In this document: piece by piece, positions 1-26,430 of the stretch
Numbering within the stretch: the stretch's first letter is position 1
How the letters are laid out: each line of letters opens with the position of its first letter
Origin: Stramenopiles sp. TOSAG23-6
Taxonomy: Eukaryota
Direction: 5' to 3'
DNA: 34,728 nucleotides
NCBI GenBank assembly: GCA_900128565.1
Contig: LT635950.1
Span: 1 to 34,728 of the forward strand
Made by a program: the position numbers and the translations under genes
The notes under the pieces: generated by a model
The model's input: the letters and a program-made list of their open reading frames with translations, nothing else
Databases searched by the model: none
What the model was told of the DNA's origin: nothing

Positions 1-143
1 ACGTTTACGCACCATCAATTTCGAATGTTTTTTTCTAGATAATCCAAATCCGATGTATTTTTTTGTTTGGTTTTTGTACGTATTTTTTTATTATAAAAAT
101 TTGTACCTAACAAAAAAAAATGACATATTTTTTTACAAAACAT

Positions 144-2735
144 TGGAGCATTGCAAGTAAGACCACCAATTGATGTATCCGTGTGTACTCAAGAATATTT
201 ACATGACCTTTATAAAAAAGATGTTAAAGTGATGTATGTTTTCATAATGAATTTTAAATTTATTTTTTTTGGTACGAAATTTTGTACCTAAACAAAGAAT
301 TTTTTTTTTGGAATATATTTTCATAATGAATTTCAATTTTTTTTTTCCGTACAATTTTTTTTTGTACTTTATGAATTTCAAAATGTAAAACATATTTTTT
401 CAAAATACATGCAATGGTTGTCTTTTGGTACAAACACTTTTCTGCCTGTTCAATTAATTGATTTGGAGTTACCACTTAAATCTCTAGATGAAAAAGACTG
501 TTCTACTACGACTACTACTAATAATAATAATAAGAAGAAGAATACAAATGATTCTACTACTATTACTACTAATAATAATACTATTACTACTACTACTAAT
601 AATAATACAAATGATTCTACTACTATTACTAATAATAATAATAATAATACAAATGATTCTACTACTACTACTACTAATAATAATAATAATACAAAGGATA
701 ATATTTTCTTAACTAAGCAATTGAATTGCAACTTAAGCGTATCATGGGACAGTGCGACTGCATCATTATTACGATTTCTGGGAATAGCAAATAGTGATAA
801 AGAGCATGGTATTATTGATGATATAGTAAACAAAACTGTTGATCAAAACAAATTTCATAATTATTATTCTGAAAATCGGTATGAAAATATCTGGTCTAAA
901 AAGCTTCGTACCATTTTAGTACAGATAGCTTGTGAAGGATCAGTAACACATACTACAAAAGTAAATGCAGCTGTTCAAGCATCAGAATTATTAGCAGGTT
1001 TATGCCCTCCACTGATGGAACGTCAACACAATATAGGTGAAAAGAATACAAACCCTAACCCCAATCATTTATCATCAAATATACGAAATACTCCAAATAA
1101 TATTTCCATAAATTATTCACCAAGTACAGATTTTACTACAAATTCAACAAAATCTTTATTATTAACACCTTTTCCACAAGTTCGTATTGGTTCTCCATTA
1201 ACTAATAAAACGAATCGAAGACGATCAAAATCTTTAAATTCAGAAAATGATCATATTAAAAAAGAAAAAACAGTTACAAAATTTGATGATGATGATTTTT
1301 CATTATCGGATAGTGGTAACAAAACTAACCATCACGAAACACCTGTTCAGTTTAGTTTATTCACTAATGATAATAATGATAATTCTACCATGAATGATAA
1401 AAGTCGGAAACGGTTTAGCAGTGCAATGTCGAATATCTCAAATATGTCAATGGAAAGTGATGTAGTTCAAATTGCTAGAGAGCAGTACGTTTTCATCATA
1501 ANTATTTTTTTTNAGAGTCTCTATGCTTTTTCATCATTAATTTTAAATGTATTTATTCATTTTTTTATAACATGAACTTTGGAATGTAACATATTTTTTC
1601 ACAATACATATACAGTAAAGGTATCATCAATGAAGAGGAACTTGACCAAGTTGTAGAGGCAGACCGTCGATGTAGTATTAATGACAACATAGATGGAATG
1701 AAACCAATACACTTATTACATGAATCAGACCAATTAAATGAGTCTTTAGAAGTGAATAATAAATTTCAAAAAAACAATTTAAAATATGAAAAACAAATTG
1801 TACCACCGACTCCACCGCCAACAACAACACGTCCACCACCACCAAGACTTCAAAAAAATGGTATTTCTTTTTCTGGTATCACAATTCGATGGCCTGATGT
1901 TTTAGGTGCAACACAATATGAAGTTCAAATTGGTCATCGATATATGTACGTTTTTCATCATTTAATTTCAAATTTATTATTTTTGTACTGAATCCAAAAG
2001 AATTCAAAAGTTACAAAAACTAACAAATGTTCAATTTGACATTTTTTTCCATAGTTCATTGGGGGTTGGCGTACAGCTGGTGGGGTAAGTAGTATAACAG
2101 CTGCAGCATTTGATAAAGATGATGCAATGAATAATACAGAATTCGATACGAAGGATGATGATAATATATCGAATTCTTTAGTACATTCGCATACCACTCC
2201 AACACGAAATACAGAAAACATACAAAACACACAAAAAACTCTAAAAAACTCTAAAAAAAAAAGTTCGATTACAAGAGCAACCAGTATAACAATAAATACA
2301 TTTTTAATACGTGGTCACTTATTAGAACGAGGGCGTAAGTACATTTGTCGCGTACGAGCTTTTTCAGTATTAGGTGGTTGGAGTGATTATAGCCGAGCAA
2401 GTGACGTCATTGCTTATGAAGGTTTTCCAATACCTGCACCACCAGCTAAAACAATTATTATTCCAGTTTCTCCAAAGGATGACACTGAAAAAATTCAGAT
2501 TTCATTAGGTACGAAACTTCGTACATATCAGCCCAAGTCTAAAGATCAAACAGAAAATAAGAAAAATAATAAAGTAACAACTTCATCTGAAGAACAGGAT
2601 AGCAAAACCCTAACCATAAGACAAACAAATAATAACAGCCCGAATAAAGATGATTCAAATAGTATCAATATTTCAGGTGACGTAAGTGATAGCGGATATA
2701 GCGAATTTGATGAAGATGCAATTCTTGATTTTTAA
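144..2735 (+). CDS. PDZ/FN3 protein, 3' part (copy 1). Exons 144-233, 411-1484, 1610-1945, 2060-2735
   Basis: ORFs 409..1575, 1698..1991 and 2127..2735 are joined in frame by GT-AT introns. FN3 motif spans the last two exons. Thr/Asn low-complexity tract present. Confidence 0.72.
234..410 (+). other. Putative GT-AT intron (177 nt, phase 2)
   Basis: gtg at|GTATGTTTTCATAATG...CATATTTTTTCAAAATACAT|g caa. The next downstream AG (468) is out of phase. Confidence 0.78.
503..692 (+). repeat. Coding (ACT)n/(AAT)n trinucleotide minisatellite encoding Thr/Asn runs
   Basis: Repeated aatacaaatgattctactactattactaataat units encoding NTNDSTTITNNN. Confidence 0.9.
1485..1609 (+). other. Putative GT-AT intron (125 nt, phase 2)
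   Basis: gag ca|GTACGTTTTCATCAT...CATATTTTTTCACAATACAT|a tac carries the 20-nt 3' motif. An in-frame CAG lies 6 nt further (1615), so canonical use is possible here. Confidence 0.65.
1946..2059 (+). other. Putative GT-AT intron (114 nt, phase 2)
   Basis: tat at|GTACGTTTTTCATCAT...ACTAAC...CATTTTTTTCCATAGTTCAT|t ggg. The TAG ending at 2054 would frameshift. The AT ending at 2059 gives FN3-like YEVQIGHRYIGGW. Confidence 0.8.
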
Positions 2736-2925
2736 TACGCTTCTTAATAAAACAATATTATCAATATCATATGTATTTTATTAGTTTTATTATGGCTGCC
2801 CAATCAAAGGTATATATTACCTATGACCCACTCAATATATAACGTATATAACTCAAAATATAATAGTGAAAACTTTCTGTATAGAAATAAGTTTCTATGG
2901 AACCCTGTGTAAAATTGATAGTCAT

Positions 2926-3126
2926 TCAATAAGTGCTAAAGTTACGAAAGCGAAAGCTTGGCATTAAACTCTTTGGTTGTTGAGGCTCACTTTCATGAGC
3001 TTCTAATTTCTTTGTTTTAATTAATGTTTTCGTTTTGGAAGGTGTTTCCATCGAAACAATACCAAAATAAAGACCAATTCCTATTAAAACAACAATACTA
3101 AATACTAGTGTTTTAAGACCAAACAT
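2926..3126 (-). CDS. Small putative single-pass membrane or secreted protein (66 aa from ATG)
   Basis: ATG in an A-rich context followed by hydrophobic LVFSIVVLIGIGLYFGIV and a polar tail. No recognised family. Copies at 13498-13698 +, 20679-20879 -, 31603-31803 +. Confidence 0.35.
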   Translation of the reverse strand: MFGLKTLVFSIVVLIGIGLYFGIVSMETPSKTKTLIKTKKLEAHESEPQQPKSLMPSFRFRNFSTY

Positions 3127-3457
3127 TTTTTTGACACTATTCGTCAAGAAATTATTAGATGAATCTCTCTATTAGTAAAATTATTGTAGTATAGTAGTGT
3201 ATCAATATGTAATACAGTGTATAGTCGTATATATAGTAGTACTGAATAGTAGTATATAGGATGAGGTAGTCTTTAATTTAACGCCGAGAGAAAAAAGAAA
3301 ATCACCGGATCTGAAAAAATACTTTTTTAAATACGGACTAGGGTTAGGGCTGGCATTTCCACGAAAAAAGTTTCAAAAAACATCACGAGTGGGTACCCCG
3401 AAGTATACTGCAAATTGTGTACTAGCACTAAGTTTTCTAAAGTATTCGTTTACACAA

Positions 3458-4620
3458 ATGGCATTACAATCAAATAAAATCTCAAAAGAGAATGATTCAT
3501 TACAATCAAATAAAATCTCAAAAGAGAATGATTCAAGTTTCCCACGTCCTCCTCTGCCACATGTAAAGTTACAAACTTCGTCTGCTACAGTCATAGTTTG
3601 CTTACATGGGGGTCATATTACCTCTTGGACGCTAAATGGCAGTGAAATTCTCTTTCTTAGTGAAAAAGCGGTGTTCAAACCTCCAAAAGCAATTCGTGGT
3701 GGAATACCTATATGCTTCCCTCAATTTAGTGATTGTGGACCAATGAAGAAAAGTCATGGGTTTGCACGGACGTTGACATGGACTCATGATAGTGACATCA
3801 TACAACATAGAAATGATAAAGACGAAATAACTTCATGTTCAACTTCGTTGTCTCTTTCCACATTTGTAAAAAGTTGGCCTTACAAGTATAACTTAAAAAT
3901 GCATATTTCAATTACTGAAAACACTTTACAACAAGATTTAATTGTAACAAACAATGGAAAACAAAAATTTGAGTTTACTGCTGTAATTTTACCTTCAATG
4001 ATTTTTTAATTTTTAATTTAAGATTTTCCAAATCTAATATTTCATATATTTTATTGGATACATCATTATCATACAGGCTCTTCATACATATTTTCGTCTA
4101 AACACCAATGCTACAAAGGTTAATGGATTACTTGGATGTACATATTTGGATTCCTTGGATAATCGAACACGAAAAACAGAAAGTGAAAAAGAAATTACAA
4201 TTGAAAATGAGATGGATCGGATTTATCTAAATGCACCTTCAAATATTATTTTACAAGACGATACAACTTGTATCAATGTGTTTTCGGATCATTCATCGAA
4301 TACAAATAATACACAAGGATTTCGTGATGGTGTATTGTGGAATCCTTGGATTGAAAAATCAAAACGCATGTTGGTTTTTCTTACATTTAAAATTATGGTT
4401 AGGGTTAGGGGTTACCCCTCATTTTTTTTTCTACGAAATTTTTACCTAACAAATTTTAAACTTTAAACATATTTTTGTACAAAACATGACTGATTTAAAT
4501 GATGATGAATATCATAATATGATATGTTACGAAGTCGCTCAAATAAATAATAAAATTGTGCTTGACGTTGGCGAAGAGTGGAAAGGATCACAAAAAATTG
4601 TTGTTTCGAAAGTGAAATAA
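3458..4620 (+). CDS. Glucose-6-phosphate 1-epimerase (D-hexose-6-phosphate mutarotase, aldose 1-epimerase family), 316 aa. Exons 3458-3982, 4077-4369, 4488-4620
   Basis: Family motifs LHGGHITSW, LFLSEKAVFKPPKAIRGGIPICFPQF, HGFAR, FTA|ALHTYF, EMDRIY, WNPWIEKSKRM|TDLNDDEYHNMICYE and GEEWKG. Confidence 0.93.
3464..3535 (+). repeat. Perfect 36-bp tandem duplication (LQSNKISKENDS x2)
   Basis: ttacaatcaaataaaatctcaaaagagaatgattca occurs twice in tandem. Confidence 0.95.
3983..4076 (+). other. Canonical GT-AG intron (94 nt, phase 0) in epimerase
   Basis: gct|GTAATT...CTAAT...TACAG|gct restores the conserved FTAALHTYF. Confidence 0.9.
4370..4487 (+). other. Non-canonical GT-AT intron (118 nt, phase 2) in epimerase
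   Basis: cgc at|GTTGGTTTTT...CCTAAC...CATATTTTTGTACAAAACAT|g act gat restores KRMTDLNDDEY. No usable AG acceptor. Confidence 0.87.
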
Positions 4621-4703
4621 ATTTATAATTTTTAAAGTCATAATATTGTGTTTTTTGAAAATATTTCATCCATTGGGAGGGTTACGTAGGGTTTTATAAT
4701 TTT

Positions 4704-7263
4704 TTAATCATTATATTGTGTTTTTTGAAAATATTTCATCCATTGAGTTGAACAGCCTCGAGCATTATTGATAATTTTTGTCTTTTGTTTCGTTCTTTGA
4801 CGTTTATGTTTTGCATTTGCTAGTTTGATCTTTGCTAAATTATCATCAAATTTGCTTTTTTTATTTCGTGTTTTTTTACTTTGTCGTGGTACTGCCGGAT
4901 GTCGACTTTTTAAATTATGTGGTACTAAAATTACCTTTTTGTTTTTTTTCTCTTTTCCATTTTGATTTGATGTACTATTTAATGTACTATTTAATTCTCT
5001 ACGAATTGAAGTCTTGGTGTCGTATTTCGTTTTTTCTTCATCGCTCTCATCGTCTGTGACTAATACTTCTTTCAAACCTCGATCAAATAATTCCGATTTC
5101 CTTTCAAATTCTTTTTGTCGTGCAACTCGACGAGGATGCGGTGCTAACTTAGATCCAAGTTGATTTGCTAATAAATAAACATCACCACGCTCCCCACTGC
5201 CAAATGTACAACTTGGTGCTCTTTTAAATCGGGAGTCAAAATGTGAAACAACTTTATCAGGAAAATTTGCAGTTGTTGTTTCAGAATATGATGTAGACAC
5301 ACATATTTTGTGAAAAAATATGCCAAAAAAAAACAAAAATTCGTTAGGTATATAAAATTTGATACAAAAAAAATAATTTCGAAATTCATAATAAAAACAT
5401 ACCCATAGAATTATGAATTACTCGATATAAATCGTCTCTATCTGCAGCACCAAAATCATGATCACATGAAGATTTTCGACGTTTTGCTGCTGCATTATCA
5501 AAAGTTGATGTTACAATTGTAGAGTCGTGCTGATCACTTTTATCTATAAACTGAACAGTATTTAAAACATTTGACAATTTCTCACAATCTTCTCGACTTG
5601 ATTTTCCAAAATCAACACGAGAGGGTGTTCGAAAGCGTGAGTTATGTGTAGTGTAAAATACTTTATGGTAATCAATACTATCATTCACTTGAGACATATC
5701 CTGTGGTAATAAAGCACCTAAATCATTGTGTCGTTTATAAATATCAGATCGTTTTGATTTTCCAAAATCAACAGACGGTGGATTAGGTACACGTGAATTA
5801 TGTTTGGTATAGAATACCTTATTATAATCAACAGAATCACCAAACTCTGACATATCACGAGGTCGAAGTCCACCAAGCAGATTTGCTTGTTTTAACATAT
5901 CATCTCTTGTTGAAGCACCAAAATCAACAGACGGTGGATTAGGTACACGTGAATTATGTTTGGTATAGAATACCTTATTATAATCAACAGAATCACCAAA
6001 CTCTGACATATCACGAGGTCGAAGTCCACCAAGTAGATTTGCATGTTTTAACATCTCTTCTCGGCTTGAAGCACCAAAATCAACACGTGAGGGTGTTCGA
6101 AAACGTGAGTTATGTTCCGTTGTAAACGCTTTATTATAATCTATGGAGTCATTGAACTCTGACATATCTCTAGGTAGTAATGCTCCTAAATCATTATTAC
6201 GAAATTTTATGTCGTCTCGTTGTGAAACACCAAAATCAACACGAGAGGGTGTTCGAAAGCGTGAGTTATGTGTAGTGTAAAATACTTTATGGTAATCAAC
6301 ACTATCATTCACTTGAGACTTATCCTGTGGTAATAAAGCACCTAAATCATTGTGTCGTTTATAAATATCAGATCTTTTTGATTTTCCAAAATCAACAGAT
6401 GGTGGATTAGGTACACGTGAATTATGTTTTGTGTAGAATACCTTATTATAGTCAACTGAATCAATTTCGTCGGATTTATCAATCACACGAGCACCAGGCA
6501 TGCCTGTGGCTAATTTCGCTGCAGAAATTCTTGAAGATGCTCCAAAATCAACACGTGATGGTGTTCGAAAACGTGAGTTATGTTCCGTTGTAAACGCTTT
6601 ATTATAATCTATGGAATCCCCGAATTCTGACATATCTCTAGGTAATGTTTGTTCTAATTCATTGTGTCGTTTATAAATATCAGATCGTTTTGATTTTCCA
6701 AAATCAACAGACGGTGGATTAGGTACACGTGAATTATGTTTGGTATAGAATACCTTATTATAATCAACAGAATCACCAAACTCTGACATATCACGAGGTC
6801 GAAGTCCACCAAGCAGATTTGCTTGTTTTAACATATCATCTCTTGTTGAAGCACCAAAATCAACAGACGGTGGATTAGGTACACGTGAATTATGTTTGGT
6901 ATAGAATACCTTATTATAATCAACAGAATCACCAAACTCTGACATATCACGAGGTCGAAGTCCACCAAGCAGATTTGCATGTTTTAACATATCATCTCGA
7001 CTAGAGGCACCAAAATCCACAGAAGGGGCATTCGGTGTTCGAGATTCTGAATATGTCACTCGTTTTTTGGTGTTTTTGGAAGAAGAGGCTTGTTCTGAAA
7101 AAAAATGTTTTAACTTTTCATCTGCCAACTGTCCTTTTCGTGTTCTTTCATCCAGAGATTTTTTGTAATTGGTTTGTGCAGACTTTGTACGCCTTGCTAT
7201 TGACTCTCTTTCATGCCTTGGGAATGTTTTGTTTGTATCTGGTGACGAATTTGGGCGATTCAT
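4704..7263 (-). CDS. 52-aa tandem-repeat protein (819 aa). Exons 7263-5403, 5302-4704. Function unknown, possibly cytoskeletal or ciliary
   Basis: 625-aa ORF with DFG motifs every 156 bp, joined to the 210-aa ORF by a GT-AT intron. An 11th degenerate repeat spans the junction. Confidence 0.82.
5303..5402 (-). other. Putative GT-AT intron (100 nt, phase 1) in repeat-protein gene (11222-11321 + in copy 2)
   Basis: atg g|GTATGTTTTTATTATG...CCTAAC...CATATTTTTTCACAAAATAT|gt gtg gives a 50-aa DFG-to-TFG unit, against 33 aa with the first in-frame AAG. Confidence 0.78.
5449..7017 (-). repeat. Coding tandem array, 10 x 156 bp
   Basis: In copy 2 the GAT of DFG falls at 9607, 9763, 9919, 10075, 10231, 10387, 10543, 10699, 10855, 11011 and 11167, an exact 156-nt period. 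Confidence 0.95.
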
Positions 7264-7549
7264 TTCGTACTTTTTCCGTGAACACAGAGGGAAATAATAG
7301 CACTTGGTGCCAGCAGAAGTAATTTTTTTTTTGAAACGTTATCCTTATTTTTTAACGTACGATACAATTTTTAGATTTCGATTGATTTCGTGTTTTCAAA
7401 CATCATTTTTGTGACTGAGTCTTTCTTTGACGTGTCCGGTGGTGGCCAAACACAAAACAATGTCTACTTTTTAGTCCACAATATCATGATCATACTACGT
7501 TGTACATTGTTCAAAGGTAATTAACATAATTGTATTTAACACAACAATT

Positions 7550-8284
7550 ATGTTGGATATCCGTTTGTATAGTAAAAAAAAGAAAAAAAAGAAACGTGGA
7601 GCAAGAGGAAAGAAGAAAAAAACAGGTCCAAAGTCAAAAAGTCAACAAAACTCTCAAATTGTATCCCAGCAACATCCTGCAAACAAAACAGCATTAATTT
7701 CAGATCACATTTTACCATTACATAATTTATATGATGATAAACATGTGTGTTCTAAACCCAATTCAAATATATATTTGGTTGATAAAAACAAAATCGTGTC
7801 CAAAGCAGTAAAAAAAGAGAGTTTTTCAAAGAATCAAACCTCTGTAAAAAAAGAGAGTTTTTCAAAGAATCAAACCTCAGTAAAAAAAGAGAGTTTTTCA
7901 AAGAATCAAACCTCCTTGACTGAAAAAAAAACATATATTGTCTAGAGAGGAACCTTCTTATTCTACTTCATCATATTCTCTCGACTGGAAAACAACACAT
8001 AGTATATCTCAAAAACATCACTATAACTGGGCATCCAAACACAAGATATTACATACTATTGACACTATTGACAACAAAACTGTAGATTTGTTGAACGAGA
8101 ATAAATGGCATTACGAAAGTAATGCACCTAAAAATACAATTGTAATTGAAAAGCCTAACCCTATCGATGTTGATGTATTTGATACTGATTTAGAAGTAAT
8201 TGGTGATACACTACGTACATTAACACAACAAGATTCATATTGTTTGCCTTCTTTGTTATTACAAGATTGTTCGTTAGGTACAAA
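7550..8284 (+). CDS. Lys-rich hypothetical protein, frameshifted near 7931-7945 and 3'-truncated by the unit end (may be a pseudogene or sequencing error)
   Basis: ORFs 7550..7945 and 7938..8339 overlap in adjacent frames next to an A9 run. Basic NLS-like N-terminus and 3x VKKESFSKNQTS. Copies at 8340-9074 -, 25303-26092 +, 26390-27179 -. Confidence 0.45.
7808..7915 (+). repeat. 3 x 36-bp coding tandem repeat (VKKESFSKNQTS)
   Basis: gtaaaaaaagagagtttttcaaagaatcaaacctcN three times. Confidence 0.95.
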
Positions 8285-8298
8285 ATTTGGTACAGATT

Positions 8299-8299
<1 letters not shown>

Positions 8300-8334
<35 letters not shown>
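8300..8334 (+). repeat. Poly(A) tract at unit end
   Basis: About 35 consecutive A, adjacent to both inversion junctions. Confidence 0.95.
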
Positions 8335-8337
<3 letters not shown>

Positions 8338-9360
8338 AATTTGTACCTAACGAACAATCTTGTAATAACAAAGAAGGCAAACAATATGAATCTTGTTGTG
8401 TTAATGTACGTAGTGTATCACCAATTACTTCTAAATCAGTATCAAATACATCAACATCGATAGGGTTAGGCTTTTCAATTACAATTGTATTTTTAGGTGC
8501 ATTACTTTCGTAATGCCATTTATTCTCGTTCAACAAATCTACAGTTTTGTTGTCAATAGTGTCAATAGTATGTAATATCTTGTGTTTGGATGCCCAGTTA
8601 TAGTGATGTTTTTGAGATATACTATGTGTTGTTTTCCAGTCGAGAGAATATGATGAAGTAGAATAAGAAGGTTCCTCTCTAGACAATATATGTTTTTTTT
8701 TCAGTCAAGGAGGTTTGATTCTTTGAAAAACTCTCTTTTTTTACTGAGGTTTGATTCTTTGAAAAACTCTCTTTTTTTACAGAGGTTTGATTCTTTGAAA
8801 AACTCTCTTTTTTTACTGCTTTGGACACGATTTTGTTTTTATCAACCAAATATATATTTGAATTGGGTTTAGAACACACATGTTTATCATCATATAAATT
8901 ATGTAATGGTAAAATGTGATCTGAAATTAATGCTGTTTTGTTTGCAGGATGTTGCTGGGATACAATTTGAGAGTTTTGTTGACTTTTTGACTTTGGACCT
9001 GTTTTTTTCTTCTTTCCTCTTGCTCCACGTTTCTTTTTTTTCTTTTTTTTACTATACAAACGGATATCCAACATAATTGTTGTGTTAAATACAATTATGT
9101 TAATTACCTTTGAACAATGTACAACGTAGTATGATCATGATATTGTGGACTAAAAAGTAGACATTGTTTTGTGTTTGGCCACCACCGGACACGTCAAAGA
9201 AAGACTCAGTCACAAAAATGATGTTTGAAAACACGAAATCAATCGAAATCTAAAAATTGTATCGTACGTTAAAAAATAAGGATAACGTTTCAAAAAAAAA
9301 ATTACTTCTGCTGGCACCAAGTGCTATTATTTCCCTCTGTGTTCACGGAAAAAGTACGAA

Positions 9361-11920
9361 ATGAATCGCCCAAATTCGTCACCAGATACAAACAAAACAT
9401 TCCCAAGGCATGAAAGAGAGTCAATAGCAAGGCGTACAAAGTCTGCACAAACCAATTACAAAAAATCTCTGGATGAAAGAACACGAAAAGGACAGTTGGC
9501 AGATGAAAAGTTAAAACATTTTTTTTCAGAACAAGCCTCTTCTTCCAAAAACACCAAAAAACGAGTGACATATTCAGAATCTCGAACACCGAATGCCCCT
9601 TCTGTGGATTTTGGTGCCTCTAGTCGAGATGATATGTTAAAACATGCAAATCTGCTTGGTGGACTTCGACCTCGTGATATGTCAGAGTTTGGTGATTCTG
9701 TTGATTATAATAAGGTATTCTATACCAAACATAATTCACGTGTACCTAATCCACCGTCTGTTGATTTTGGTGCTTCAACAAGAGATGATATGTTAAAACA
9801 AGCAAATCTGCTTGGTGGACTTCGACCTCGTGATATGTCAGAGTTTGGTGATTCTGTTGATTATAATAAGGTATTCTATACCAAACATAATTCACGTGTA
9901 CCTAATCCACCGTCTGTTGATTTTGGAAAATCAAAACGATCTGATATTTATAAACGACACAATGAATTAGAACAAACATTACCTAGAGATATGTCAGAAT
10001 TCGGGGATTCCATAGATTATAATAAAGCGTTTACAACGGAACATAACTCACGTTTTCGAACACCATCACGTGTTGATTTTGGAGCATCTTCAAGAATTTC
10101 TGCAGCGAAATTAGCCACAGGCATGCCTGGTGCTCGTGTGATTGATAAATCCGACGAAATTGATTCAGTTGACTATAATAAGGTATTCTACACAAAACAT
10201 AATTCACGTGTACCTAATCCACCATCTGTTGATTTTGGAAAATCAAAAAGATCTGATATTTATAAACGACACAATGATTTAGGTGCTTTATTACCACAGG
10301 ATAAGTCTCAAGTGAATGATAGTGTTGATTACCATAAAGTATTTTACACTACACATAACTCACGCTTTCGAACACCCTCTCGTGTTGATTTTGGTGTTTC
10401 ACAACGAGACGACATAAAATTTCGTAATAATGATTTAGGAGCATTACTACCTAGAGATATGTCAGAGTTCAATGACTCCATAGATTATAATAAAGCGTTT
10501 ACAACGGAACATAACTCACGTTTTCGAACACCCTCACGTGTTGATTTTGGTGCTTCAAGCCGAGAAGAGATGTTAAAACATGCAAATCTACTTGGTGGAC
10601 TTCGACCTCGTGATATGTCAGAGTTTGGTGATTCTGTTGATTATAATAAGGTATTCTATACCAAACATAATTCACGTGTACCTAATCCACCGTCTGTTGA
10701 TTTTGGTGCTTCAACAAGAGATGATATGTTAAAACAAGCAAATCTGCTTGGTGGACTTCGACCTCGTGATATGTCAGAGTTTGGTGATTCTGTTGATTAT
10801 AATAAGGTATTCTATACCAAACATAATTCACGTGTACCTAATCCACCGTCTGTTGATTTTGGAAAATCAAAACGATCTGATATTTATAAACGACACAATG
10901 ATTTAGGTGCTTTATTACCACAGGATATGTCTCAAGTGAATGATAGTATTGATTACCATAAAGTATTTTACACTACACATAACTCACGCTTTCGAACACC
11001 CTCTCGTGTTGATTTTGGAAAATCAAGTCGAGAAGATTGTGAGAAATTGTCAAATGTTTTAAATACTGTTCAGTTTATAGATAAAAGTGATCAGCACGAC
11101 TCTACAATTGTAACATCAACTTTTGATAATGCAGCAGCAAAACGTCGAAAATCTTCATGTGATCATGATTTTGGTGCTGCAGATAGAGACGATTTATATC
11201 GAGTAATTCATAATTCTATGGGTATGTTTTTATTATGAATTTCGAAATTATTTTTTTTGTATCAAATTTTATATACCTAACGAATTTTTGTTTTTTTTTG
11301 GCATATTTTTTCACAAAATATGTGTGTCTACATCATATTCTGAAACAACAACTGCAAATTTTCCTGATAAAGTTGTTTCACATTTTGACTCCCGATTTAA
11401 AAGAGCACCAAGTTGTACATTTGGCAGTGGGGAGCGTGGTGATGTTTATTTATTAGCAAATCAACTTGGATCTAAGTTAGCACCGCATCCTCGTCGAGTT
11501 GCACGACAAAAAGAATTTGAAAGGAAATCGGAATTATTTGATCGAGGTTTGAAAGAAGTATTAGTCACAGACGATGAGAGCGATGAAGAAAAAACGAAAT
11601 ACGACACCAAGACTTCAATTCGTAGAGAATTAAATAGTACATTAAATAGTACATCAAATCAAAATGGAAAAGAGAAAAAAAACAAAAAGGTAATTTTAGT
11701 ACCACATAATTTAAAAAGTCGACATCCGGCAGTACCACGACAAAGTAAAAAAACACGAAATAAAAAAAGCAAATTTGATGATAATTTAGCAAAGATCAAA
11801 CTAGCAAATGCAAAACATAAACGTCAAAGAACGAAACAAAAGACAAAAATTATCAATAATGCTCGAGGCTGTTCAACTCAATGGATGAAATATTTTCAAA
11901 AAACACAATATAATGATTAA
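9361..11920 (+). CDS. 52-aa tandem-repeat protein (copy 2). Exons 9361-11221, 11322-11920
   Basis: Inverted copy of 4704-7263. Confidence 0.8.
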
Positions 11921-12003
11921 AAAATTATAAAACCCTACGTAACCCTCCCAATGGATGAAATATTTTCAAAAAACACAATATTATGACTTTAAAAATTATA
12001 AAT

Positions 12004-13166
12004 TTATTTCACTTTCGAAACAACAATTTTTTGTGATCCTTTCCACTCTTCGCCAACGTCAAGCACAATTTTATTATTTATTTGAGCGACTTCGTAACAT
12101 ATCATATTATGATATTCATCATCATTTAAATCAGTCATGTTTTGTACAAAAATATGTTTAAAGTTTAAAATTTGTTAGGTAAAAATTTCGTAGAAAAAAA
12201 AATGAGGGGTAACCCCTAACCCTAACCATAATTTTAAATGTAAGAAAAACCAACATGCGTTTTGATTTTTCAATCCAAGGATTCCACAATACACCATCAC
12301 GAAATCCTTGTGTATTATTTGTATTCGATGAATGATCCGAAAACACATTGATACAAGTTGTATCGTCTTGTAAAATAATATTTGAAGGTGCATTTAGATA
12401 AATCCGATCCATCTCATTTTCAATTGTAATTTCTTTTTCACTTTCTGTTTTTCGTGTTCGATTATCCAAGGAATCCAAATATGTACATCCAAGTAATCCA
12501 TTAACCTTTGTAGCATTGGTGTTTAGACGAAAATATGTATGAAGAGCCTGTATGATAATGATGTATCCAATAAAATATATGAAATATTAGATTTGGAAAA
12601 TCTTAAATTAAAAATTAAAAAATCATTGAAGGTAAAATTACAGCAGTAAACTCAAATTTTTGTTTTCCATTGTTTGTTACAATTAAATCTTGTTGTAAAG
12701 TGTTTTCAGTAATTGAAATATGCATTTTTAAGTTATACTTGTAAGGCCAACTTTTTACAAATGTGGAAAGAGACAACGAAGTTGAACATGAAGTTATTTC
12801 GTCTTTATCATTTCTATGTTGTATGATGTCACTATCATGAGTCCATGTCAACGTCCGTGCAAACCCATGACTTTTCTTCATTGGTCCACAATCACTAAAT
12901 TGAGGGAAGCATATAGGTATTCCACCACGAATTGCTTTTGGAGGTTTGAACACCGCTTTTTCACTAAGAAAGAGAATTTCACTGCCATTTAGCGTCCAAG
13001 AGGTAATATGACCCCCATGTAAGCAAACTATGACTGTAGCAGACGAAGTTTGTAACTTTACATGTGGCAGAGGAGGACGTGGGAAACTTGAATCATTCTC
13101 TTTTGAGATTTTATTTGATTGTAATGAATCATTCTCTTTTGAGATTTTATTTGATTGTAATGCCAT
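12004..13166 (-). CDS. Glucose-6-phosphate 1-epimerase (copy 2)
   Basis: Inverted copy of 3458-4620. Confidence 0.88.
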
Positions 13167-13888
13167 TTGTGTAAACGAATACTTTAGAAAACTTAGTGCT
13201 AGTACACAATTTGCAGTATACTTCGGGGTACCCACTCGTGATGTTTTTTGAAACTTTTTTCGTGGAAATGCCAGCCCTAACCCTAGTCCGTATTTAAAAA
13301 AGTATTTTTTCAGATCCGGTGATTTTCTTTTTTCTCTCGGCGTTAAATTAAAGACTACCTCATCCTATATACTACTATTCAGTACTACTATATATACGAC
13401 TATACACTGTATTACATATTGATACACTACTATACTACAATAATTTTACTAATAGAGAGATTCATCTAATAATTTCTTGACGAATAGTGTCAAAAAAATG
13501 TTTGGTCTTAAAACACTAGTATTTAGTATTGTTGTTTTAATAGGAATTGGTCTTTATTTTGGTATTGTTTCGATGGAAACACCTTCCAAAACGAAAACAT
13601 TAATTAAAACAAAGAAATTAGAAGCTCATGAAAGTGAGCCTCAACAACCAAAGAGTTTAATGCCAAGCTTTCGCTTTCGTAACTTTAGCACTTATTGAAT
13701 GACTATCAATTTTACACAGGGTTCCATAGAAACTTATTTCTATACAGAAAGTTTTCACTATTATATTTTGAGTTATATACGTTATATATTGAGTGGGTCA
13801 TAGGTAATATATACCTTTGATTGGGCAGCCATAATAAAACTAATAAAATACATATGATATTGATAATATTGTTTTATTAAGAAGCGTA

Positions 13889-16800
13889 TTAAAAATCAAG
13901 AATTGCATCTTCATCAAATTCGCTATATCCGCTATCACTTACGTCACCTGAAATATTGATACTATTTGAATCATCTTTATTCGGGCTGTTATTATTTGTT
14001 TGTCTTATGGTTAGGGTTTTGCTATCCTGTTCTTCAGATGAAGTTGTTACTTTATTATTTTTCTTATTTTCTGTTTGATCTTTAGACTTGGGCTGATATG
14101 TACGAAGTTTCGTACCTAATGAAATCTGAATTTTTTCAGTGTCATCCTTTGGAGAAACTGGAATAATAATTGTTTTAGCTGGTGGTGCAGGTATTGGAAA
14201 ACCTTCATAAGCAATGACGTCACTTGCTCGGCTATAATCACTCCAACCACCTAATACTGAAAAAGCTCGTACGCGACAAATGTACTTACGCCCTCGTTCT
14301 AATAAGTGACCACGTATTAAAAATGTATTTATTGTTATACTGGTTGCTCTTGTAATCGAACTTTTTTTTTTAGAGTTTTTTAGAGTTTTTTGTGTGTTTT
14401 GTATGTTTTCTGTATTTCGTGTTGGAGTGGTATGCGAATGTACTAAAGAATTCGATATATTATCATCATCCTTCGTATCGAATTCTGTATTATTCATTGC
14501 ATCATCTTTATCAAATGCTGCAGCTGTTATACTACTTACCCCACCAGCTGTACGCCAACCCCCAATGAACTATGGAAAAAAATGTCAAATTGAACATTTG
14601 TTAGTTTTTGTAACTTTTGAATTCTTTTGGATTCAGTACAAAAATAATAAATTTGAAATTAAATGATGAAAAACGTACATATATCGATGACCAATTTGAA
14701 CTTCATATTGTGTTGCACCTAAAACATCAGGCCATCGAATTGTGATACCAGAAAAAGAAATACCATTTTTTTGAAGTCTTGGTGGTGGTGGACGTGTTGT
14801 TGTTGGCGGTGGAGTCGGTGGTACAATTTGTTTTTCATATTTTAAATTGTTTTTTTGAAATTTATTATTCACTTCTAAAGACTCATTTAATTGGTCTGAT
14901 TCATGTAATAAGTGTATTGGTTTCATTCCATCTATGTTGTCATTAATACTACATCGACGGTCTGCCTCTACAACTTGGTCAAGTTCCTCTTCATTGATGA
15001 TACCTTTACTGTATATGTATTGTGAAAAAATATGTTACATTCCAAAGTTCATGTTATAAAAAAATGAATAAATACATTTAAAATTAATGATGAAAAAGCA
15101 TAGAGACTCTNAAAAAAAATANTTATGATGAAAACGTACTGCTCTCTAGCAATTTGAACTACATCACTTTCCATTGACATATTTGAGATATTCGACATTG
15201 CACTGCTAAACCGTTTCCGACTTTTATCATTCATGGTAGAATTATCATTATTATCATTAGTGAATAAACTAAACTGAACAGGTGTTTCGTGATGGTTAGT
15301 TTTGTTACCACTATCCGATAATGAAAAATCATCATCATCAAATTTTGTAACTGTTTTTTCTTTTTTAATATGATCATTTTCTGAATTTAAAGATTTTGAT
15401 CGTCTTCGATTCGTTTTATTAGTTAATGGAGAACCAATACGAACTTGTGGAAAAGGTGTTAATAATAAAGATTTTGTTGAATTTGTAGTAAAATCTGTAC
15501 TTGGTGAATAATTTATGGAAATATTATTTGGAGTATTTCGTATATTTGATGATAAATGATTGGGGTTAGGGTTTGTATTCTTTTCACCTATATTGTGTTG
15601 ACGTTCCATCAGTGGAGGGCATAAACCTGCTAATAATTCTGATGCTTGAACAGCTGCATTTACTTTTGTAGTATGTGTTACTGATCCTTCACAAGCTATC
15701 TGTACTAAAATGGTACGAAGCTTTTTAGACCAGATATTTTCATACCGATTTTCAGAATAATAATTATGAAATTTGTTTTGATCAACAGTTTTGTTTACTA
15801 TATCATCAATAATACCATGCTCTTTATCACTATTTGCTATTCCCAGAAATCGTAATAATGATGCAGTCGCACTGTCCCATGATACGCTTAAGTTGCAATT
15901 CAATTGCTTAGTTAAGAAAATATTATCCTTTGTATTATTATTATTATTAGTAGTAGTAGTAGTAGAATCATTTGTATTATTATTATTATTATTAGTAATA
16001 GTAGTAGAATCATTTGTATTATTATTAGTAGTAGTAGTAATAGTATTATTATTAGTAGTAATAGTAGTAGAATCATTTGTATTCTTCTTCTTATTATTAT
16101 TATTAGTAGTAGTCGTAGTAGAACAGTCTTTTTCATCTAGAGATTTAAGTGGTAACTCCAAATCAATTAATTGAACAGGCAGAAAAGTGTTTGTACCAAA
16201 AGACAACCATTGCATGTATTTTGAAAAAATATGTTTTACATTTTGAAATTCATAAAGTACAAAAAAAAATTGTACGGAAAAAAAAAATTGAAATTCATTA
16301 TGAAAATATATTCCAAAAAAAAAATTCTTTGTTTAGGTACAAAATTTCGTACCAAAAAAAATAAATTTAAAATTCATTATGAAAACATACATCACTTTAA
16401 CATCTTTTTTATAAAGGTCATGTAAATATTCTTGAGTACACACGGATACATCAATTGGTGGTCTTACTTGCAATGCTCCAATGTTTTGTAAAAAAATATG
16501 TCATTTTTTTTTGTTAGGTACAAATTTTTATAATAAAAAAATACGTACAAAAACCAAACAAAAAAATACATCGGATTTGGATTATCTAGAAAAAAACATT
16601 CGAAATTGATGGTGCGTAAACGTACATAGATGCTAATGCTATGGCTGTAGGTAATGTAATTGGAATACATCCAGTGATATTCATCATAGTTGAACTATTT
16701 GTTTTTGAATGTATCGTTTTAGATGTAGATCCCAAATTCAACATGCTTGAACGTCTTAATTTTGGTGTTGTATTCTTACTTGTATTTAACATACTTGAAC

Positions 16801-17753
16801 TTCTTGGTTTTGGTGTTGTAGTATTAGTATTAGTATAATGTGAAAATGTATCATCATTGGTATGCAAATTCGATATTAAGTCACTATTGAATTTTGTAAC
16901 TAAAGATTTTTTTGTACCTAATGAATTTCGAATTTGTTGTGACTCTTCACTTAAACCTGCTCGTCGCATTGCTAACATCTCCATAGCATCTCGCATTTGT
17001 TTAAGCTCAATCTCTTGTGCAGCAATTCGATTTTCTTGAGCAATAATGCGCAATTGTAAAGCTTTTTGCATTTGACACGTGTCATTACTATTAGGGTTAT
17101 CGATGTTTGAGTCAGGAGAATGAAATGAAAGTTGAGAATTTCGAGAGTACCGTGGTGATATTGGTGGTGTTGTTGGTGGTGATGGCATTTGTTTCATTAT
17201 CTCTTGTGGTGACTTATTTAGTGTATTTCGTGTTTTATACGACATCGTAGAATCATTGTCCATCATTAAAGTAGTAAATTCAATAGTCCGTTGATACATA
17301 TTTCGTTCATGTATTGTGGAAAAATATGTTGTATTTGAAAATTGTCAATAAAAAATCCTTAGGTACAAAATGTGGCGCAAAAATATAAATAAAAATTGTT
17401 ACGTACGAAATTTACGAAATTTCATACGAAAAATACATAAATTTAAAATTCATGATGAAAACGTACATGTAAATACTCCACAATATCTGCAAATTTCCAA
17501 TGTAAAACTTTTGTACTATCAATTGTTTGTATCCACATTCCAGGTGATACACCCTTTTTCTTTAACTCATTAATTCTATTGAGTACAGTAGTCACTGTGT
17601 TATTTCGTGTTTTATTACTAGGGTTAGGATTTCCCACAATTTTTGTAGGCGTTTTTTTGCCTTCATTAAAATTTTCAATCTGCGCTCCTCTTCTATGCAA
17701 ACCACACTTTAATTGCAAACCCAATGCACCAGAAGGGACATTAACAATAACAG
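13889..17753 (-). CDS. PDZ-domain and fibronectin type III domain protein, 5'-partial. Exons 17753-17467, 17308-16626, 16480-16391, 16213-15140, 15014-14679, 14564-13889 (most complete copy)
   Basis: N-terminal VIVNVPSGALGLQL...GVSPGMWIQTIDSTKVLHWKFADIVEYLH|ERNMYQRTIEF resembles a PDZ fold (GLGL-type loop, alphaB, betaF). C-terminal ITIRWPDVLGATQYEVQ...GGW...LERGRKYICRVRAFSVLGGWSDYS matches the FN3 pattern. Five GT-AT introns join all ORF segments in frame to TAA. Domain calls are by eye. Confidence 0.75.
16481..16625 (-). other. Putative GT-AT intron (145 nt, phase 2); positions 1-143 are this intron minus its first GT
   Basis: tct at|GTACGTTTAC...CCTAAC...CATATTTTTTTACAAAACAT|t gga gives ALAS-I-GALQ. 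An in-frame AAG 18 nt downstream is an alternative acceptor. Confidence 0.72.
17309..17466 (-). other. Putative non-canonical GT-AT intron (158 nt, phase 0)
   Basis: Minus strand cat|GTACGTTTTCATCATG...CATATTTTTCCACAATACAT|gaa joins EYLH to ERNMYQ within the PDZ-like domain. The internal AAG (17358) is out of frame. Confidence 0.8.
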
Positions 17754-17896
17754 ACGTTTACGCACCATCAATTTCGAATGTTTTTTTCTAGATAATCCAA
17801 ATCCGATGTATTTTTTTGTTTGGTTTTTGTACGTATTTTTTTATTATAAAAATTTGTACCTAACAAAAAAAAATGACATATTTTTTTACAAAACAT

Positions 17897-20488
17897 TGGA
17901 GCATTGCAAGTAAGACCACCAATTGATGTATCCGTGTGTACTCAAGAATATTTACATGACCTTTATAAAAAAGATGTTAAAGTGATGTATGTTTTCATAA
18001 TGAATTTTAAATTTATTTTTTTTGGTACGAAATTTTGTACCTAAACAAAGAATTTTTTTTTTGGAATATATTTTCATAATGAATTTCAATTTTTTTTTTC
18101 CGTACAATTTTTTTTTGTACTTTATGAATTTCAAAATGTAAAACATATTTTTTCAAAATACATGCAATGGTTGTCTTTTGGTACAAACACTTTTCTGCCT
18201 GTTCAATTAATTGATTTGGAGTTACCACTTAAATCTCTAGATGAAAAAGACTGTTCTACTACGACTACTACTAATAATAATAATAAGAAGAAGAATACAA
18301 ATGATTCTACTACTATTACTACTAATAATAATACTATTACTACTACTACTAATAATAATACAAATGATTCTACTACTATTACTAATAATAATAATAATAA
18401 TACAAATGATTCTACTACTACTACTACTAATAATAATAATAATACAAAGGATAATATTTTCTTAACTAAGCAATTGAATTGCAACTTAAGCGTATCATGG
18501 GACAGTGCGACTGCATCATTATTACGATTTCTGGGAATAGCAAATAGTGATAAAGAGCATGGTATTATTGATGATATAGTAAACAAAACTGTTGATCAAA
18601 ACAAATTTCATAATTATTATTCTGAAAATCGGTATGAAAATATCTGGTCTAAAAAGCTTCGTACCATTTTAGTACAGATAGCTTGTGAAGGATCAGTAAC
18701 ACATACTACAAAAGTAAATGCAGCTGTTCAAGCATCAGAATTATTAGCAGGTTTATGCCCTCCACTGATGGAACGTCAACACAATATAGGTGAAAAGAAT
18801 ACAAACCCTAACCCCAATCATTTATCATCAAATATACGAAATACTCCAAATAATATTTCCATAAATTATTCACCAAGTACAGATTTTACTACAAATTCAA
18901 CAAAATCTTTATTATTAACACCTTTTCCACAAGTTCGTATTGGTTCTCCATTAACTAATAAAACGAATCGAAGACGATCAAAATCTTTAAATTCAGAAAA
19001 TGATCATATTAAAAAAGAAAAAACAGTTACAAAATTTGATGATGATGATTTTTCATTATCGGATAGTGGTAACAAAACTAACCATCACGAAACACCTGTT
19101 CAGTTTAGTTTATTCACTAATGATAATAATGATAATTCTACCATGAATGATAAAAGTCGGAAACGGTTTAGCAGTGCAATGTCGAATATCTCAAATATGT
19201 CAATGGAAAGTGATGTAGTTCAAATTGCTAGAGAGCAGTACGTTTTCATCATAANTATTTTTTTTNAGAGTCTCTATGCTTTTTCATCATTAATTTTAAA
19301 TGTATTTATTCATTTTTTTATAACATGAACTTTGGAATGTAACATATTTTTTCACAATACATATACAGTAAAGGTATCATCAATGAAGAGGAACTTGACC
19401 AAGTTGTAGAGGCAGACCGTCGATGTAGTATTAATGACAACATAGATGGAATGAAACCAATACACTTATTACATGAATCAGACCAATTAAATGAGTCTTT
19501 AGAAGTGAATAATAAATTTCAAAAAAACAATTTAAAATATGAAAAACAAATTGTACCACCGACTCCACCGCCAACAACAACACGTCCACCACCACCAAGA
19601 CTTCAAAAAAATGGTATTTCTTTTTCTGGTATCACAATTCGATGGCCTGATGTTTTAGGTGCAACACAATATGAAGTTCAAATTGGTCATCGATATATGT
19701 ACGTTTTTCATCATTTAATTTCAAATTTATTATTTTTGTACTGAATCCAAAAGAATTCAAAAGTTACAAAAACTAACAAATGTTCAATTTGACATTTTTT
19801 TCCATAGTTCATTGGGGGTTGGCGTACAGCTGGTGGGGTAAGTAGTATAACAGCTGCAGCATTTGATAAAGATGATGCAATGAATAATACAGAATTCGAT
19901 ACGAAGGATGATGATAATATATCGAATTCTTTAGTACATTCGCATACCACTCCAACACGAAATACAGAAAACATACAAAACACACAAAAAACTCTAAAAA
20001 ACTCTAAAAAAAAAAGTTCGATTACAAGAGCAACCAGTATAACAATAAATACATTTTTAATACGTGGTCACTTATTAGAACGAGGGCGTAAGTACATTTG
20101 TCGCGTACGAGCTTTTTCAGTATTAGGTGGTTGGAGTGATTATAGCCGAGCAAGTGACGTCATTGCTTATGAAGGTTTTCCAATACCTGCACCACCAGCT
20201 AAAACAATTATTATTCCAGTTTCTCCAAAGGATGACACTGAAAAAATTCAGATTTCATTAGGTACGAAACTTCGTACATATCAGCCCAAGTCTAAAGATC
20301 AAACAGAAAATAAGAAAAATAATAAAGTAACAACTTCATCTGAAGAACAGGATAGCAAAACCCTAACCATAAGACAAACAAATAATAACAGCCCGAATAA
20401 AGATGATTCAAATAGTATCAATATTTCAGGTGACGTAAGTGATAGCGGATATAGCGAATTTGATGAAGATGCAATTCTTGATTTTTAA
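17897..20488 (+). CDS. PDZ/FN3 protein, 3' part (copy 3)
   Basis: Copy of 144-2735. Confidence 0.65.
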
Positions 20489-21210
20489 TACGCTTCTTAA
20501 TAAAACAATATTATCAATATCATATGTATTTTATTAGTTTTATTATGGCTGCCCAATCAAAGGTATATATTACCTATGACCCACTCAATATATAACGTAT
20601 ATAACTCAAAATATAATAGTGAAAACTTTCTGTATAGAAATAAGTTTCTATGGAACCCTGTGTAAAATTGATAGTCATTCAATAAGTGCTAAAGTTACGA
20701 AAGCGAAAGCTTGGCATTAAACTCTTTGGTTGTTGAGGCTCACTTTCATGAGCTTCTAATTTCTTTGTTTTAATTAATGTTTTCGTTTTGGAAGGTGTTT
20801 CCATCGAAACAATACCAAAATAAAGACCAATTCCTATTAAAACAACAATACTAAATACTAGTGTTTTAAGACCAAACATTTTTTTGACACTATTCGTCAA
20901 GAAATTATTAGATGAATCTCTCTATTAGTAAAATTATTGTAGTATAGTAGTGTATCAATATGTAATACAGTGTATAGTCGTATATATAGTAGTACTGAAT
21001 AGTAGTATATAGGATGAGGTAGTCTTTAATTTAACGCCGAGAGAAAAAAGAAAATCACCGGATCTGAAAAAATACTTTTTTAAATACGGACTAGGGTTAG
21101 GGCTGGCATTTCCACGAAAAAAGTTTCAAAAAACATCACGAGTGGGTACCCCGAAGTATACTGCAAATTGTGTACTAGCACTAAGTTTTCTAAAGTATTC
21201 GTTTACACAA

Positions 21211-22373: not shown

Positions 22374-22456
22374 ATTTATAATTTTTAAAGTCATAATATT
22401 GTGTTTTTTGAAAATATTTCATCCATTGGGAGGGTTACGTAGGGTTTTATAATTTT

Positions 22457-26051: not shown

Positions 26052-26090
<39 letters not shown>

Positions 26091-26092
26091 AA

Positions 26093-26389: not shown

Positions 26390-26391
26390 TT

Positions 26392-26430
<39 letters not shown>

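Follow-up and report, generated by a model that had tools for sequence, protein, structure and literature searches.

The window analysed here, a stretch of 34,728 nt of DNA from an AT-rich marine eukaryote, contains four alternating copies of one unit, 100% identical to each other and laid out as unit (+), unit (-), a 1130-nt spacer, unit (+), a gap of N and unit (-). Its unique DNA amounts to approximately 9.5 kb, namely one 8.3-kb unit and the 1.1-kb spacer, so that the number of independent introns considered below is exactly seven (Table 1). They are spread over three genes, of which the epimerase gene was recognized by Pfam, with the Aldose_epim domain running colinearly across its exons; the other exons gave nothing significant against Pfam, and searches of the window against Rfam and for tRNAs returned no match. 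The DNA of Ib comprises unit positions 1-143 and 2 nt of the spacer, with the donor (GTACGTTT) at the border of spacer and unit; in the first copy, this intron ends at position 143 but starts outside the copy. Ic is a tandem double element, in which a second, donor-dead 5′ block begins near position 313.

Table 1. Coordinates of the seven introns with a 3′ terminal block and of the comparison intron in the window
Intron	Coordinates	Strand	Length (nt)	3′ block	nhmmer E-value	Remarks
Ia	17309..17466	-	158	17309-17330	7.7e-27	in the 1130-nt spacer
Ib	16481..16625	-	145	16481-16502 (= 122-143 on + in the first copy)	1.5e-21	
Ic	234..410	+	177	389-410, containing the 20-mer 391-410	5e-21	GT..AT model
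Id	1485..1609	+	125	1588-1609		length includes two single N
Ie	1946..2059	+	114	2038-2059 (CATTTTTTTCCATAGTTCAT)		block most divergent of the seven
Ig	4370..4487	+	118	4466-4487		glucose-6-phosphate 1-epimerase gene
Ih	5303..5402	-	100	5303-5324		repeat-protein gene; terminal TAT
Comparison intron	3983..4076	+				sole canonical GT-AG intron of the unique DNA; carries neither conserved block

The intron family and its 3′ terminal block

The seven introns were recovered by nhmmer at E-values of 1e-10 to 8e-27, whereas any further hit in the unique 9.5 kb had an E-value of at least 0.028. Homology spans their full length and takes in CCTAAC as well as an internal GTAC...GTAC hairpin; judged by sequence, they are one repeated, introner-like family. 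A sequence-only reading of this DNA had described the last 20 nt of seven introns as a motif of fixed length; all seven 20-mers are present where it placed them, the one at 11302-11321 being that of Ih as found in an inverted copy, and they align without gaps, as had been claimed, the length of the T-run differing by substitution only. When the 20-mer 1590-1609 was used as a query and the whole window was scanned with up to three mismatches, 21 matches were found versus 0.09 expected. These represent six distinct sites, five in the 8.3-kb unit (four times each) and one in the spacer; the seventh 20-mer (2040-2059) is reached from this query only with more than three mismatches. The shorter pattern CATWTTTTT has 49 matches in the window versus 7.5 expected.

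The 20-mer constitutes most of a 22-nt block with the consensus R-A-CAT-A-TTTTT-Y-C-A-C-A-A-W-A-CAT, and conservation sets in sharply at -22 when the introns are anchored at their 3′ ends. Positions C-20, A-19, T-18, T-16 to T-12, A-9, A-7, A-2 and T-1 are invariant in all seven, and the terminal triplet is CAT in six introns and TAT in one, that is, YAT throughout. The T-run at -16 to -12, likewise found in 7/7, lies 10–11 nt from the cut, farther than the usual polypyrimidine tract. Upstream of the block, CTAAC is found at -37, -40, -42 and -45 in four introns, and is absent or distant in the remaining three. We regard the motif and its constant spacing as established, along with the membership of the introns in one family.

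Given that the seven introns belong to a common family, the block is partly shared by descent, and with n = 7 and a single family, descent and selection on the block are inseparable. In another and, in our opinion, rather unlikely reading, conservation of the block reflects nothing but the recent origin of the introns as mobile copies (introner or MITE-like, or products of reverse splicing), with termini that either serve mobility or are simply young, and the length of the block would be uninformative on splicing. Compatible with this are the full-length homology, including the hairpin and CCTAAC, the presence of extra copies of the family in contigs from RNA libraries, the tandem double structure of Ic and the TSD-like direct repeats of 2–6 nt at six of the seven junctions (6, 2, 3, 0, 2, 4 and 2 nt, with the 6-nt repeat TACATG flanking Ia). 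However, the interiors of the introns are diverged and rich in indels, whereas a MAFFT alignment contains 0 gaps in its last 24 columns, and an indel affects the T-run at the 5′ end in one of the seven introns but that at the 3′ end in none. Furthermore, the two intron ends do not form inverted repeats, the length of the direct repeats is inconstant (0–6 nt), and all seven copies lie in sense orientation within coding exons, with none in the intergenic DNA of the 9.5 kb.

Frame-exact GT..AT excision in the gene models

The donors read GTACGTT in four introns, GTATGTT in two and GTTGGTT in one, with GT in 7/7, GTAYG in 6/7 and G1, T2, G5, T6, T7 and T8 invariant; the consensus, GTAYGTTT, is an extended U1-type donor conserved to +8. 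At the exon edge before the donor, positions -2 and -1 are AT in 5/7 introns (P = 3e-4), mirroring the AT of the 3′ end, and YAY directly precedes the donor in four (CAT, TAT, TAT and CAT).

Excision from the G of GTAYGTTT to just past the block leaves all seven junctions in frame, for which our own arithmetic, (1/3)^7, gives a chance of approximately 5e-4. No boundary pair other than GT..AT suits all seven introns; AT..AC boundaries fit only four of them, and TA-bounded excision, when checked by hand, breaks the frame. Two further claims of the sequence-only reading, namely, that the introns have a 3′ end other than AG and that the cut falls at a constant distance past the conserved motif, are thereby borne out, with AT in 7/7 under the sole uniform boundary model and with seven frame-consistent models out of seven. 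Under the GT..AT rule, gene A has an open frame of 1048 codons across five introns and gene D, which encodes the repeat protein, one of 820 codons, and the genes terminate at TAA in the standard code. Excision at GT..AT is, in these gene models, frame-exact, and gene finders restricted to GT-AG would consequently break nearly every gene of this locus in annotation.

The junctions were placed by protein homology in one case (4370-4487) and by open reading frames alone in the other six. For the former, splice models were scored against an HMM built from 60 homologues: the GT..AT splice, which aligned across the junction without a gap, obtained 316.7 bits, and the best of 13 in-frame GT-AG alternatives 286.8 bits. 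No AG alternative scores as highly, and the junction is confirmed at the level of protein homology. Most introns also contain CAT and TAT at -20 to -16, yet these are not frame-keeping sites, and in Ie neither the CAT at -10 to -8 nor the AG at -7/-6 keeps the frame. Since these upstream CAT and TAT triplets, and the AG of Ie, are skipped, the block appears to act as a signal, as opposed to a site found by scanning for the first YAT.

Complementarity between the donor and the block

It had also been proposed that the start of the motif pairs with the donor, and here the evidence is divided. The complementarity itself stands, in that 42 of the 49 cells pair in the proposed register, although the donor GTATGTT on which the proposal was based is found in only two of the seven introns. 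Among 44 registers, that at -16 ranks first, the others being 18%–71% paired; slid registers are 24%–59% paired, and permuted donors equal the observed complementarity in 4.2% of trials. In the intron at 234-410, for which an extended pairing had been described, a strong helix is indeed predicted (P 0.77–0.99, folding z -3.25), and the duplex between the donor and the 3′ segment is better than that with interior windows in Ic, Id and Ih.

These observations could be taken to mean that a stem in cis, formed by the donor (+1..+7/9) and (A)ACATAT at -22..-16, fixes the 5′ site 15 nt from the acceptor and in this way defines the cut. We consider this very doubtful. A search for covariation yielded no compensatory changes: the +4:-19 pair is unpaired in 5/7 introns, and one-sided changes, in Ie at -17 and in Ig at +3 and +4, disrupt pairs instead of co-varying. 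Nor did folding reveal the stem as a general device, the helix probability being at most 0.12 in six of the seven introns (z -0.44 to +0.85), and RNAalifold predicted 0 consensus pairs for the introns. For Ia, Ib, Ie and Ig, interior windows give duplex energies at least as favourable as that of the 3′ segment. The stem as a general feature of the seven introns is not supported; in the explanation that we prefer, the complementarity would be a property of two consensus sequences and not a conserved stem.

Recognition of the 3′ site and likeness to other introns

GT-AT ends have been reported among U12-type introns, in particular in Physarum, where they account for 17% of 1,014 non-canonical U12-type introns and where the branch motif, located 10–12 nt from the 3′ site, has co-evolved with U12 (bioRxiv 10.1101/2020.10.12.336362), as well as in human and mouse, with seven GT-AT cases in a class of introns described as being without an obvious tract (PMC1557818). 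As far as these accounts go, the introns described here resemble the U12 type in an accepted terminal pair, rigid extended signals and a 3′ site whose distance from a motif upstream varies little. They could be envisaged as a transformed U12-like class, with the branch inside the block (A-9 or A-7), a cut set by distance and a terminal dinucleotide free to vary, which would account for the coexistence at one locus of two classes, one with a rigid 5′ site, a 3′ block and a non-AG end and the other represented by a single ordinary GT-AG intron. We nevertheless hold such a derivation to be improbable, because the 5′ motif [G/A]TATCCTT and the branch motif TTCCTT[G/A]AC are absent from all seven introns (TATCC in 0/7 donors and CCTTRAC in 0/7), and because a T-run occurs in all of them and four have a good U2-like CTAAC upstream.

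The analogy with nonconventional euglenid introns, drawn in the sequence-only reading, breaks down on the features that define those introns. The likeness to the introns of euglenids and diplonemids (hemistasiids and eupelagonemids), as these are described, consists of a marine protist setting, non-AG ends, TSD-like repeats and some complementarity of the ends, and the 5′ site of Diplonemidae is reported as (G)/GTATG (PMC12621601). By contrast, the descriptions of those introns give variable GC-rich borders, no U1-type donor, strong pairing of the ends and no T-tract, whereas the introns studied here have conserved borders (GTAYGTTT and YAT), a T-run and weak end pairing: positions +4..+6 do not pair with -8..-6 (0–2 of three pairs per intron), and the end-to-end register is 64% paired with no covariation. 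It is exceedingly improbable that the segments are not RNA introns of a spliceosomal kind but either IES-like DNA removed somatically or euglenid-type nonconventional introns removed without a spliceosome. Such an origin would suit the non-AG ends, the short direct repeats at the borders and the finding of nothing but unspliced sequence in RNA libraries, but not the conserved GT within a U1-type donor, the TAA stops under the standard code, the lack of a common TA boundary, the T-run, the failure of the +4..+6/-8..-6 pairing or the lack of a consensus structure.

Closer parallels are found in larvaceans of the family Fritillariidae, in which AT is reported as the commonest 3′ end (44% in F. 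pellucida and 34% in F. borealis), nearly all of the non-canonical introns end in YAY, a YAY is frequent just before the 5′ site and a U-rich tract has been retained; removal is by the U2-type spliceosome, with divergent U2AF paralogues binding the non-AG ends (PMC13326754), and an origin of the introns from transposons with TIR and TSD has been proposed (PMC13326754; PMC11282704). The terminal YAT in 7/7 introns and the YAY before the donor in 4/7 are in line with this pattern. Unlike the main classes described for F. borealis, which start with AG (AG/AC and AG/AT), all seven introns here start with GT, and the text descriptions of Fritillariidae introns mention no fixed 22-nt block, a comparison on which the logos and supplements may also bear. 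The best homologues of the epimerase are 43%–48% identical, and the named ones among the 120 listed come from plants, algae and bacteria, with no animal among them, so that the host is probably not a tunicate. A single homologue was found for the repeat protein, a protein atlas gave nothing beyond the family, and the window contains no marker gene. Introners of Micromonas, Aureococcus, dinoflagellates and fungi, described as near-alike introns at unrelated positions with short direct repeats that render the borders ambiguous (PMC11282704), offer another parallel, the seven highly similar introns occupying unrelated positions in three genes. However, introners are reported to supply or create canonical splice sites (PMC11282704), whereas the 3′ end here is AT, with no evident terminal inverted repeats and direct repeats of 0–6 nt. 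Mirusvirus introns were considered as relatives and discarded; they are GT-AG (PMC12768974) and unrelated. In the accessible text of the literature on GT-AT introns in protists, we found no description of the present motif.

Taken together, we lean towards interpreting the block as a 3′ splice-site signal read in trans, within a multi-copy family of homologous sense introns that have a GTAYGTTT donor and YAT instead of YAG. The signal would consist of the T-run, a 10-nt A/C-rich spacer and the terminal YAT, and would be read by a factor defining the 3′ site, for which a divergent U2AF-like protein and an snRNA are the candidates. CTAAC, the likely branch site, would lie farther upstream at a variable distance, and removal would be spliceosomal. 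A constant block length would follow from joint reading of signal and cut site as a single unit and from the recent common ancestry of the copies. A trans-acting factor was one of the two options offered by the earlier reading and remains the most plausible, its reading of the block being inferred from the features described above. The choice of a 3′ site by a spliceosome when AG is lacking is known only in broad terms, through U12-type introns and, of late, the Fritillaria U2AF paralogues, and a GT..AT family with one rigid 3′ block would offer a clean natural substrate for this question. Should the host prove to be a protist, the family would also represent an independent origin of large-scale non-AG splicing tied to intron proliferation. 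In a bolder and decidedly tentative extension, the host would be a marine protist with a second splicing code that serves to remove most of its introns, the cut being made not at AG but at a fixed distance past the 22-nt block. The block would then be a true molecular ruler, which a lineage-specific factor or a co-evolved snRNA reads, and the introns bearing it would have multiplied as a mobile family.

Contigs from three seawater RNA libraries, each containing 6%–9% of the sampled words, were compared with positions 1514-8339; they are of low depth and lack splice joints, so that splicing is neither shown nor refuted by these libraries. Canonical in-frame alternatives exist for Id, with AG at 1614-1615, and for Ie, from GT 1950 to AG 2054, and further contigs stop matching around the end of Id, at 1609 (two contigs), 1613 and 1615; the two alternatives and the match ending at 1615 count against the explanation that we favour, as do the distance of the T-run from the cut, the three introns in which CTAAC is lacking or far off and a family copy that seems to have no block (see below). 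Pattern scans for more copies gave only chance matches in unrelated and mostly prokaryote-like DNA, with 23 metagenome loci and no viral locus for the 5′ block and two viral and 10 genome loci for the 3′ block. Among the extra family copies in the RNA-library contigs, one seems to be devoid of the block (a loose end at 5325). In one contig, a 5′ portion resembling 1952-1984 is joined through 40 other letters, ACCTAAC among them, to a 3′ portion resembling the sequence from 1584 onward; another carries CATATTTTTTCACAATTTAT.

Layout of the window and the conserved 3' block

Self-comparison resolved the window (G+C ~31%) into four copies of one unit, identical at 100% down to the same single Ns, and one unique spacer (table). 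The true order is the reverse-complemented spacer followed by the unit; since this amounts to ~9.5 kb of unique DNA, any count made over the window is some four times too high, and the independent introns of the type considered here number exactly seven. The alternating four-copy layout resembles an amplification or long-read palindrome artefact and not genome structure; directly before the A run at its first turn, GTTAGGTACAAAATTTGGTAC is the reverse complement of the hairpin/CCTAAC part of the intron family.

Coordinates of the features in the window; the 20-mer is the motif of the sequence-only reading
Feature	Coordinates	Strand	Remark
Unit copy 1	1-8339		8,339 nt
First palindrome turn	8285-8339		run of ~35 A, then TTTAAT
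Unit copy 2	8340-16623		reverse complement of unit positions 8284 to 1
Spacer	16624-17753		1,130 nt, unique
Unit copy 3	17754-26092		
Run of Ns	26093-26389		297 Ns
Unit copy 4	26390-34728		reverse complement
Copy junctions	8339/8340, 16623/16624, 17753/17754		
Intron Ia	17309-17466	-	20-mer 17328-17309, within spacer
Intron Ib	16481-16625	-	20-mer 124-143 in copy 1
Intron Ic	234-410	+	20-mer 391-410
Intron Id	1485-1609	+	20-mer 1590-1609
Intron Ie	1946-2059	+	20-mer 2040-2059
Intron Ig	4370-4487	+	epimerase gene; 20-mer 4468-4487
Intron Ih	5303-5402	-	repeat-protein gene; 20-mer 5303-5322, in the inverted copy 11302-11321
Ordinary intron	3983-4076		GT-AG, without either block
Gene A stop	2733-2735		TAA
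Gene A low-complexity tract	510-700		Thr/Asn-rich, ACT/AAT repeats
Gene D	5404-7263	-	tandem repeats
TTAGGG/CCCTAA repeats	4398-4412		inside Ig
TTAGGG/CCCTAA repeats	3341-3352		upstream of epimerase gene
TTAGGG/CCCTAA repeats	1054-1066		coding exon

The sequence-only reading had described a 20-nt motif of fixed length closing seven introns, and all seven 20-mers were found where it had placed them. The intron ending at 143, however, starts not within the first copy but at the spacer/unit border, with donor GTACGTTT. A search with the 20-mer of Id (≤3 mismatches) returned 21 matches in the window against 0.09 expected, which correspond to six distinct sites; that of Ie, more divergent, is the seventh. 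Alignment with MAFFT left zero gaps in the last 24 columns of the seven introns, as opposed to indel-rich interiors, and between copies the length of the T-run is altered by substitutions alone. Counted from the 3' end, conservation does not leave background until -22, where it climbs steeply, -23 being the last background position: the conserved segment, hereafter the block, is really 22 nt long, not 20, with C-20, A-19, T-18, T-16 to T-12, A-9, A-7, A-2 and T-1 invariant. Both the motif and the constancy of its spacing are genuine.

Intron borders and gene models

A single border rule, by which each intron runs from the G of the conserved GTAYGTTT through the final base of the block, gives gene A one open frame of 1,048 codons across five introns and gene D 820 codons with one intron. 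The three exons of the glucose-6-phosphate 1-epimerase gene are colinear with Pfam Aldose_epim (profile positions 2-154, 156-257 and 263-298). [quoted passage not shown] Short direct repeats leave a border ambiguity of 0-6 nt, within which GT..AT is the sole end pair fitting all seven introns; AT..AC ends fit four of them. In-frame canonical alternatives exist in Id (GT 1485 to AG 1615, 6 nt past the block) and in Ie (GT 1950, at +5, to AG 2054, within the block). Three seawater RNA libraries contain 6%-9% of the words sampled from the DNA, but since the resulting contigs are of low depth and comparison with 1514-8339 yielded no joints, splicing itself is inferred and not shown.

The gene D product carries a recurring SVDYNKVFYT...VDFG motif (DNA copies 91%-97% alike), has no significant Pfam family and retrieved one homologue, 35% identical, at E ≤ 0.001 among 7,999 candidates scored. 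The low-complexity tract of gene A is long and coding, and the TTAGGG/CCCTAA repeats are short and telomere-like.

Proposed donor pairing and probable recognition of the 3' end

According to the sequence-only reading, the donor GTATGTT can pair with (A)ACATAT at the start of the 20-mer, and either a stem of this kind keeps the 5' splice site 15 nt from the acceptor or a factor acting in trans measures the distance. In the proposed pairing register (G+1 opposite -16), 42 of 49 cells hold a standard pair, compared with 24%-59% in slid registers, and it is the best of 44. The consensus sequences are thus complementary, but only weakly beyond chance, as permuted donors equalled the register in 4.2% of trials. 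No pair between donor and block had changed on both sides; one-sided changes break pairs in Ie and Ig, and +4:-19 is unpaired in five of the seven introns, where the invariant A faces a donor C (four introns) or G (one). The helix proposed for Ic is indeed predicted there (probability 0.77-0.99; whole-intron z -3.25), whereas the other six introns gave ≤0.12 (z -0.44 to +0.85), and RNAalifold predicted zero consensus pairs for the seven. Neither an end-to-end register (64% paired) nor the euglenid register (+4..+6/-8..-6) performed better. With no compensatory change and a helix in Ic alone, these results do not support a donor stem as a feature of the introns in general.

The donor itself is an ordinary U1-type site of extended form. 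A good branch-like CTAAC occurs at -37 to -45 in 4/7 introns, and as its distance to the cut varies, the cut is not measured from it. A mechanism that simply scans to the first YAT or AG is disfavoured: CAT and TAT lie within the block at -20 to -16, joined in Ie by CAT and AG at -10 to -6, yet the frame-keeping cut is always the YAT (the last three bases) that ends the block. Given these internal sites and the variable CTAAC distance, we lean slightly, as the best explanation, towards a block that acts as one 3' signal and is read in trans; it would comprise the T-run, a 10-nt A/C-rich spacer and YAT. The exon end preceding the donor is AT in 5/7 introns (P = 3e-4), which mirrors the 3' AT, either as AG|G does the AG of ordinary introns or in the manner of a target-site duplication.

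One intron family and its relatives

A profile of the seven introns recovers all of them at E 1e-10 to 8e-27, with no other match below E 0.028 in the 9.5 kb. All seven are in sense orientation within coding exons of three genes and share three parts: at the 5' end a block (GTAYGTTTTCATCATGAATTT...), in the middle a GTAC...GTAC hairpin with CCTAAC after it, and at the 3' end the block described above. In Ic two elements stand in tandem (235-302 aligns with 313-378), and the donor of the second 5' block is mutated and dead, ATATATTTT. Together the seven form an introner-like family with non-canonical GT..AT ends. As members of one family they owe the block partly to descent, and seven copies are too few to separate descent fully from selection on block length; the indel-free block beside indel-rich interiors nevertheless argues for constraint.

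Among the sources cited here, the nearest described case is that of Fritillariidae, in which AT is reported as the commonest 3' intron end (44% in F. pellucida, 34% in F. borealis), the last triplet is YAY, YAY often precedes the 5' site, a U-rich tract is retained and non-AG ends are bound by duplicated, divergent U2AF subunits (PMC13326754); a transposon origin has been proposed for them (PMC11282704). By contrast, the window's introns retain GT, and their host looks, on weak evidence, like a protist rather than a tunicate; no animal appears among the named matches in 120 listed epimerase homologues. GT-AT is also recognised as a rare U12-type pair, its 3' site narrowly spaced from the branch motif (bioRxiv 10.1101/2020.10.12.336362, PMC1557818), but U12 motifs are missing in 7/7 introns. 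The non-canonical introns of euglenids and hemistasiids, as described in PMC12621601, are unlike these: their borders vary and are GC-rich, and their ends pair strongly.

The family has more copies than the seven. Among the RNA-library contigs, there are matches to the 5' part of Ie alone (1944-1984) followed by unrelated sequence, and matches that end exactly at 1609 (two contigs) or at 1613 and 1615. One contig holds an entire further intron, consisting of a part like 1952-1984, 40 other letters with ACCTAAC and a part like 1584 onward; another has donor GTATGTTTTC and, on its other side, block CATATTTTTTCACAATTTAT. One copy, with a loose end at 5325, seemingly has no block. A coding stretch of gene A, 2490-2523 (GGTACGAAACTTCGTAC), resembles the family's internal hairpin, and a contig of another family copy aligned there.
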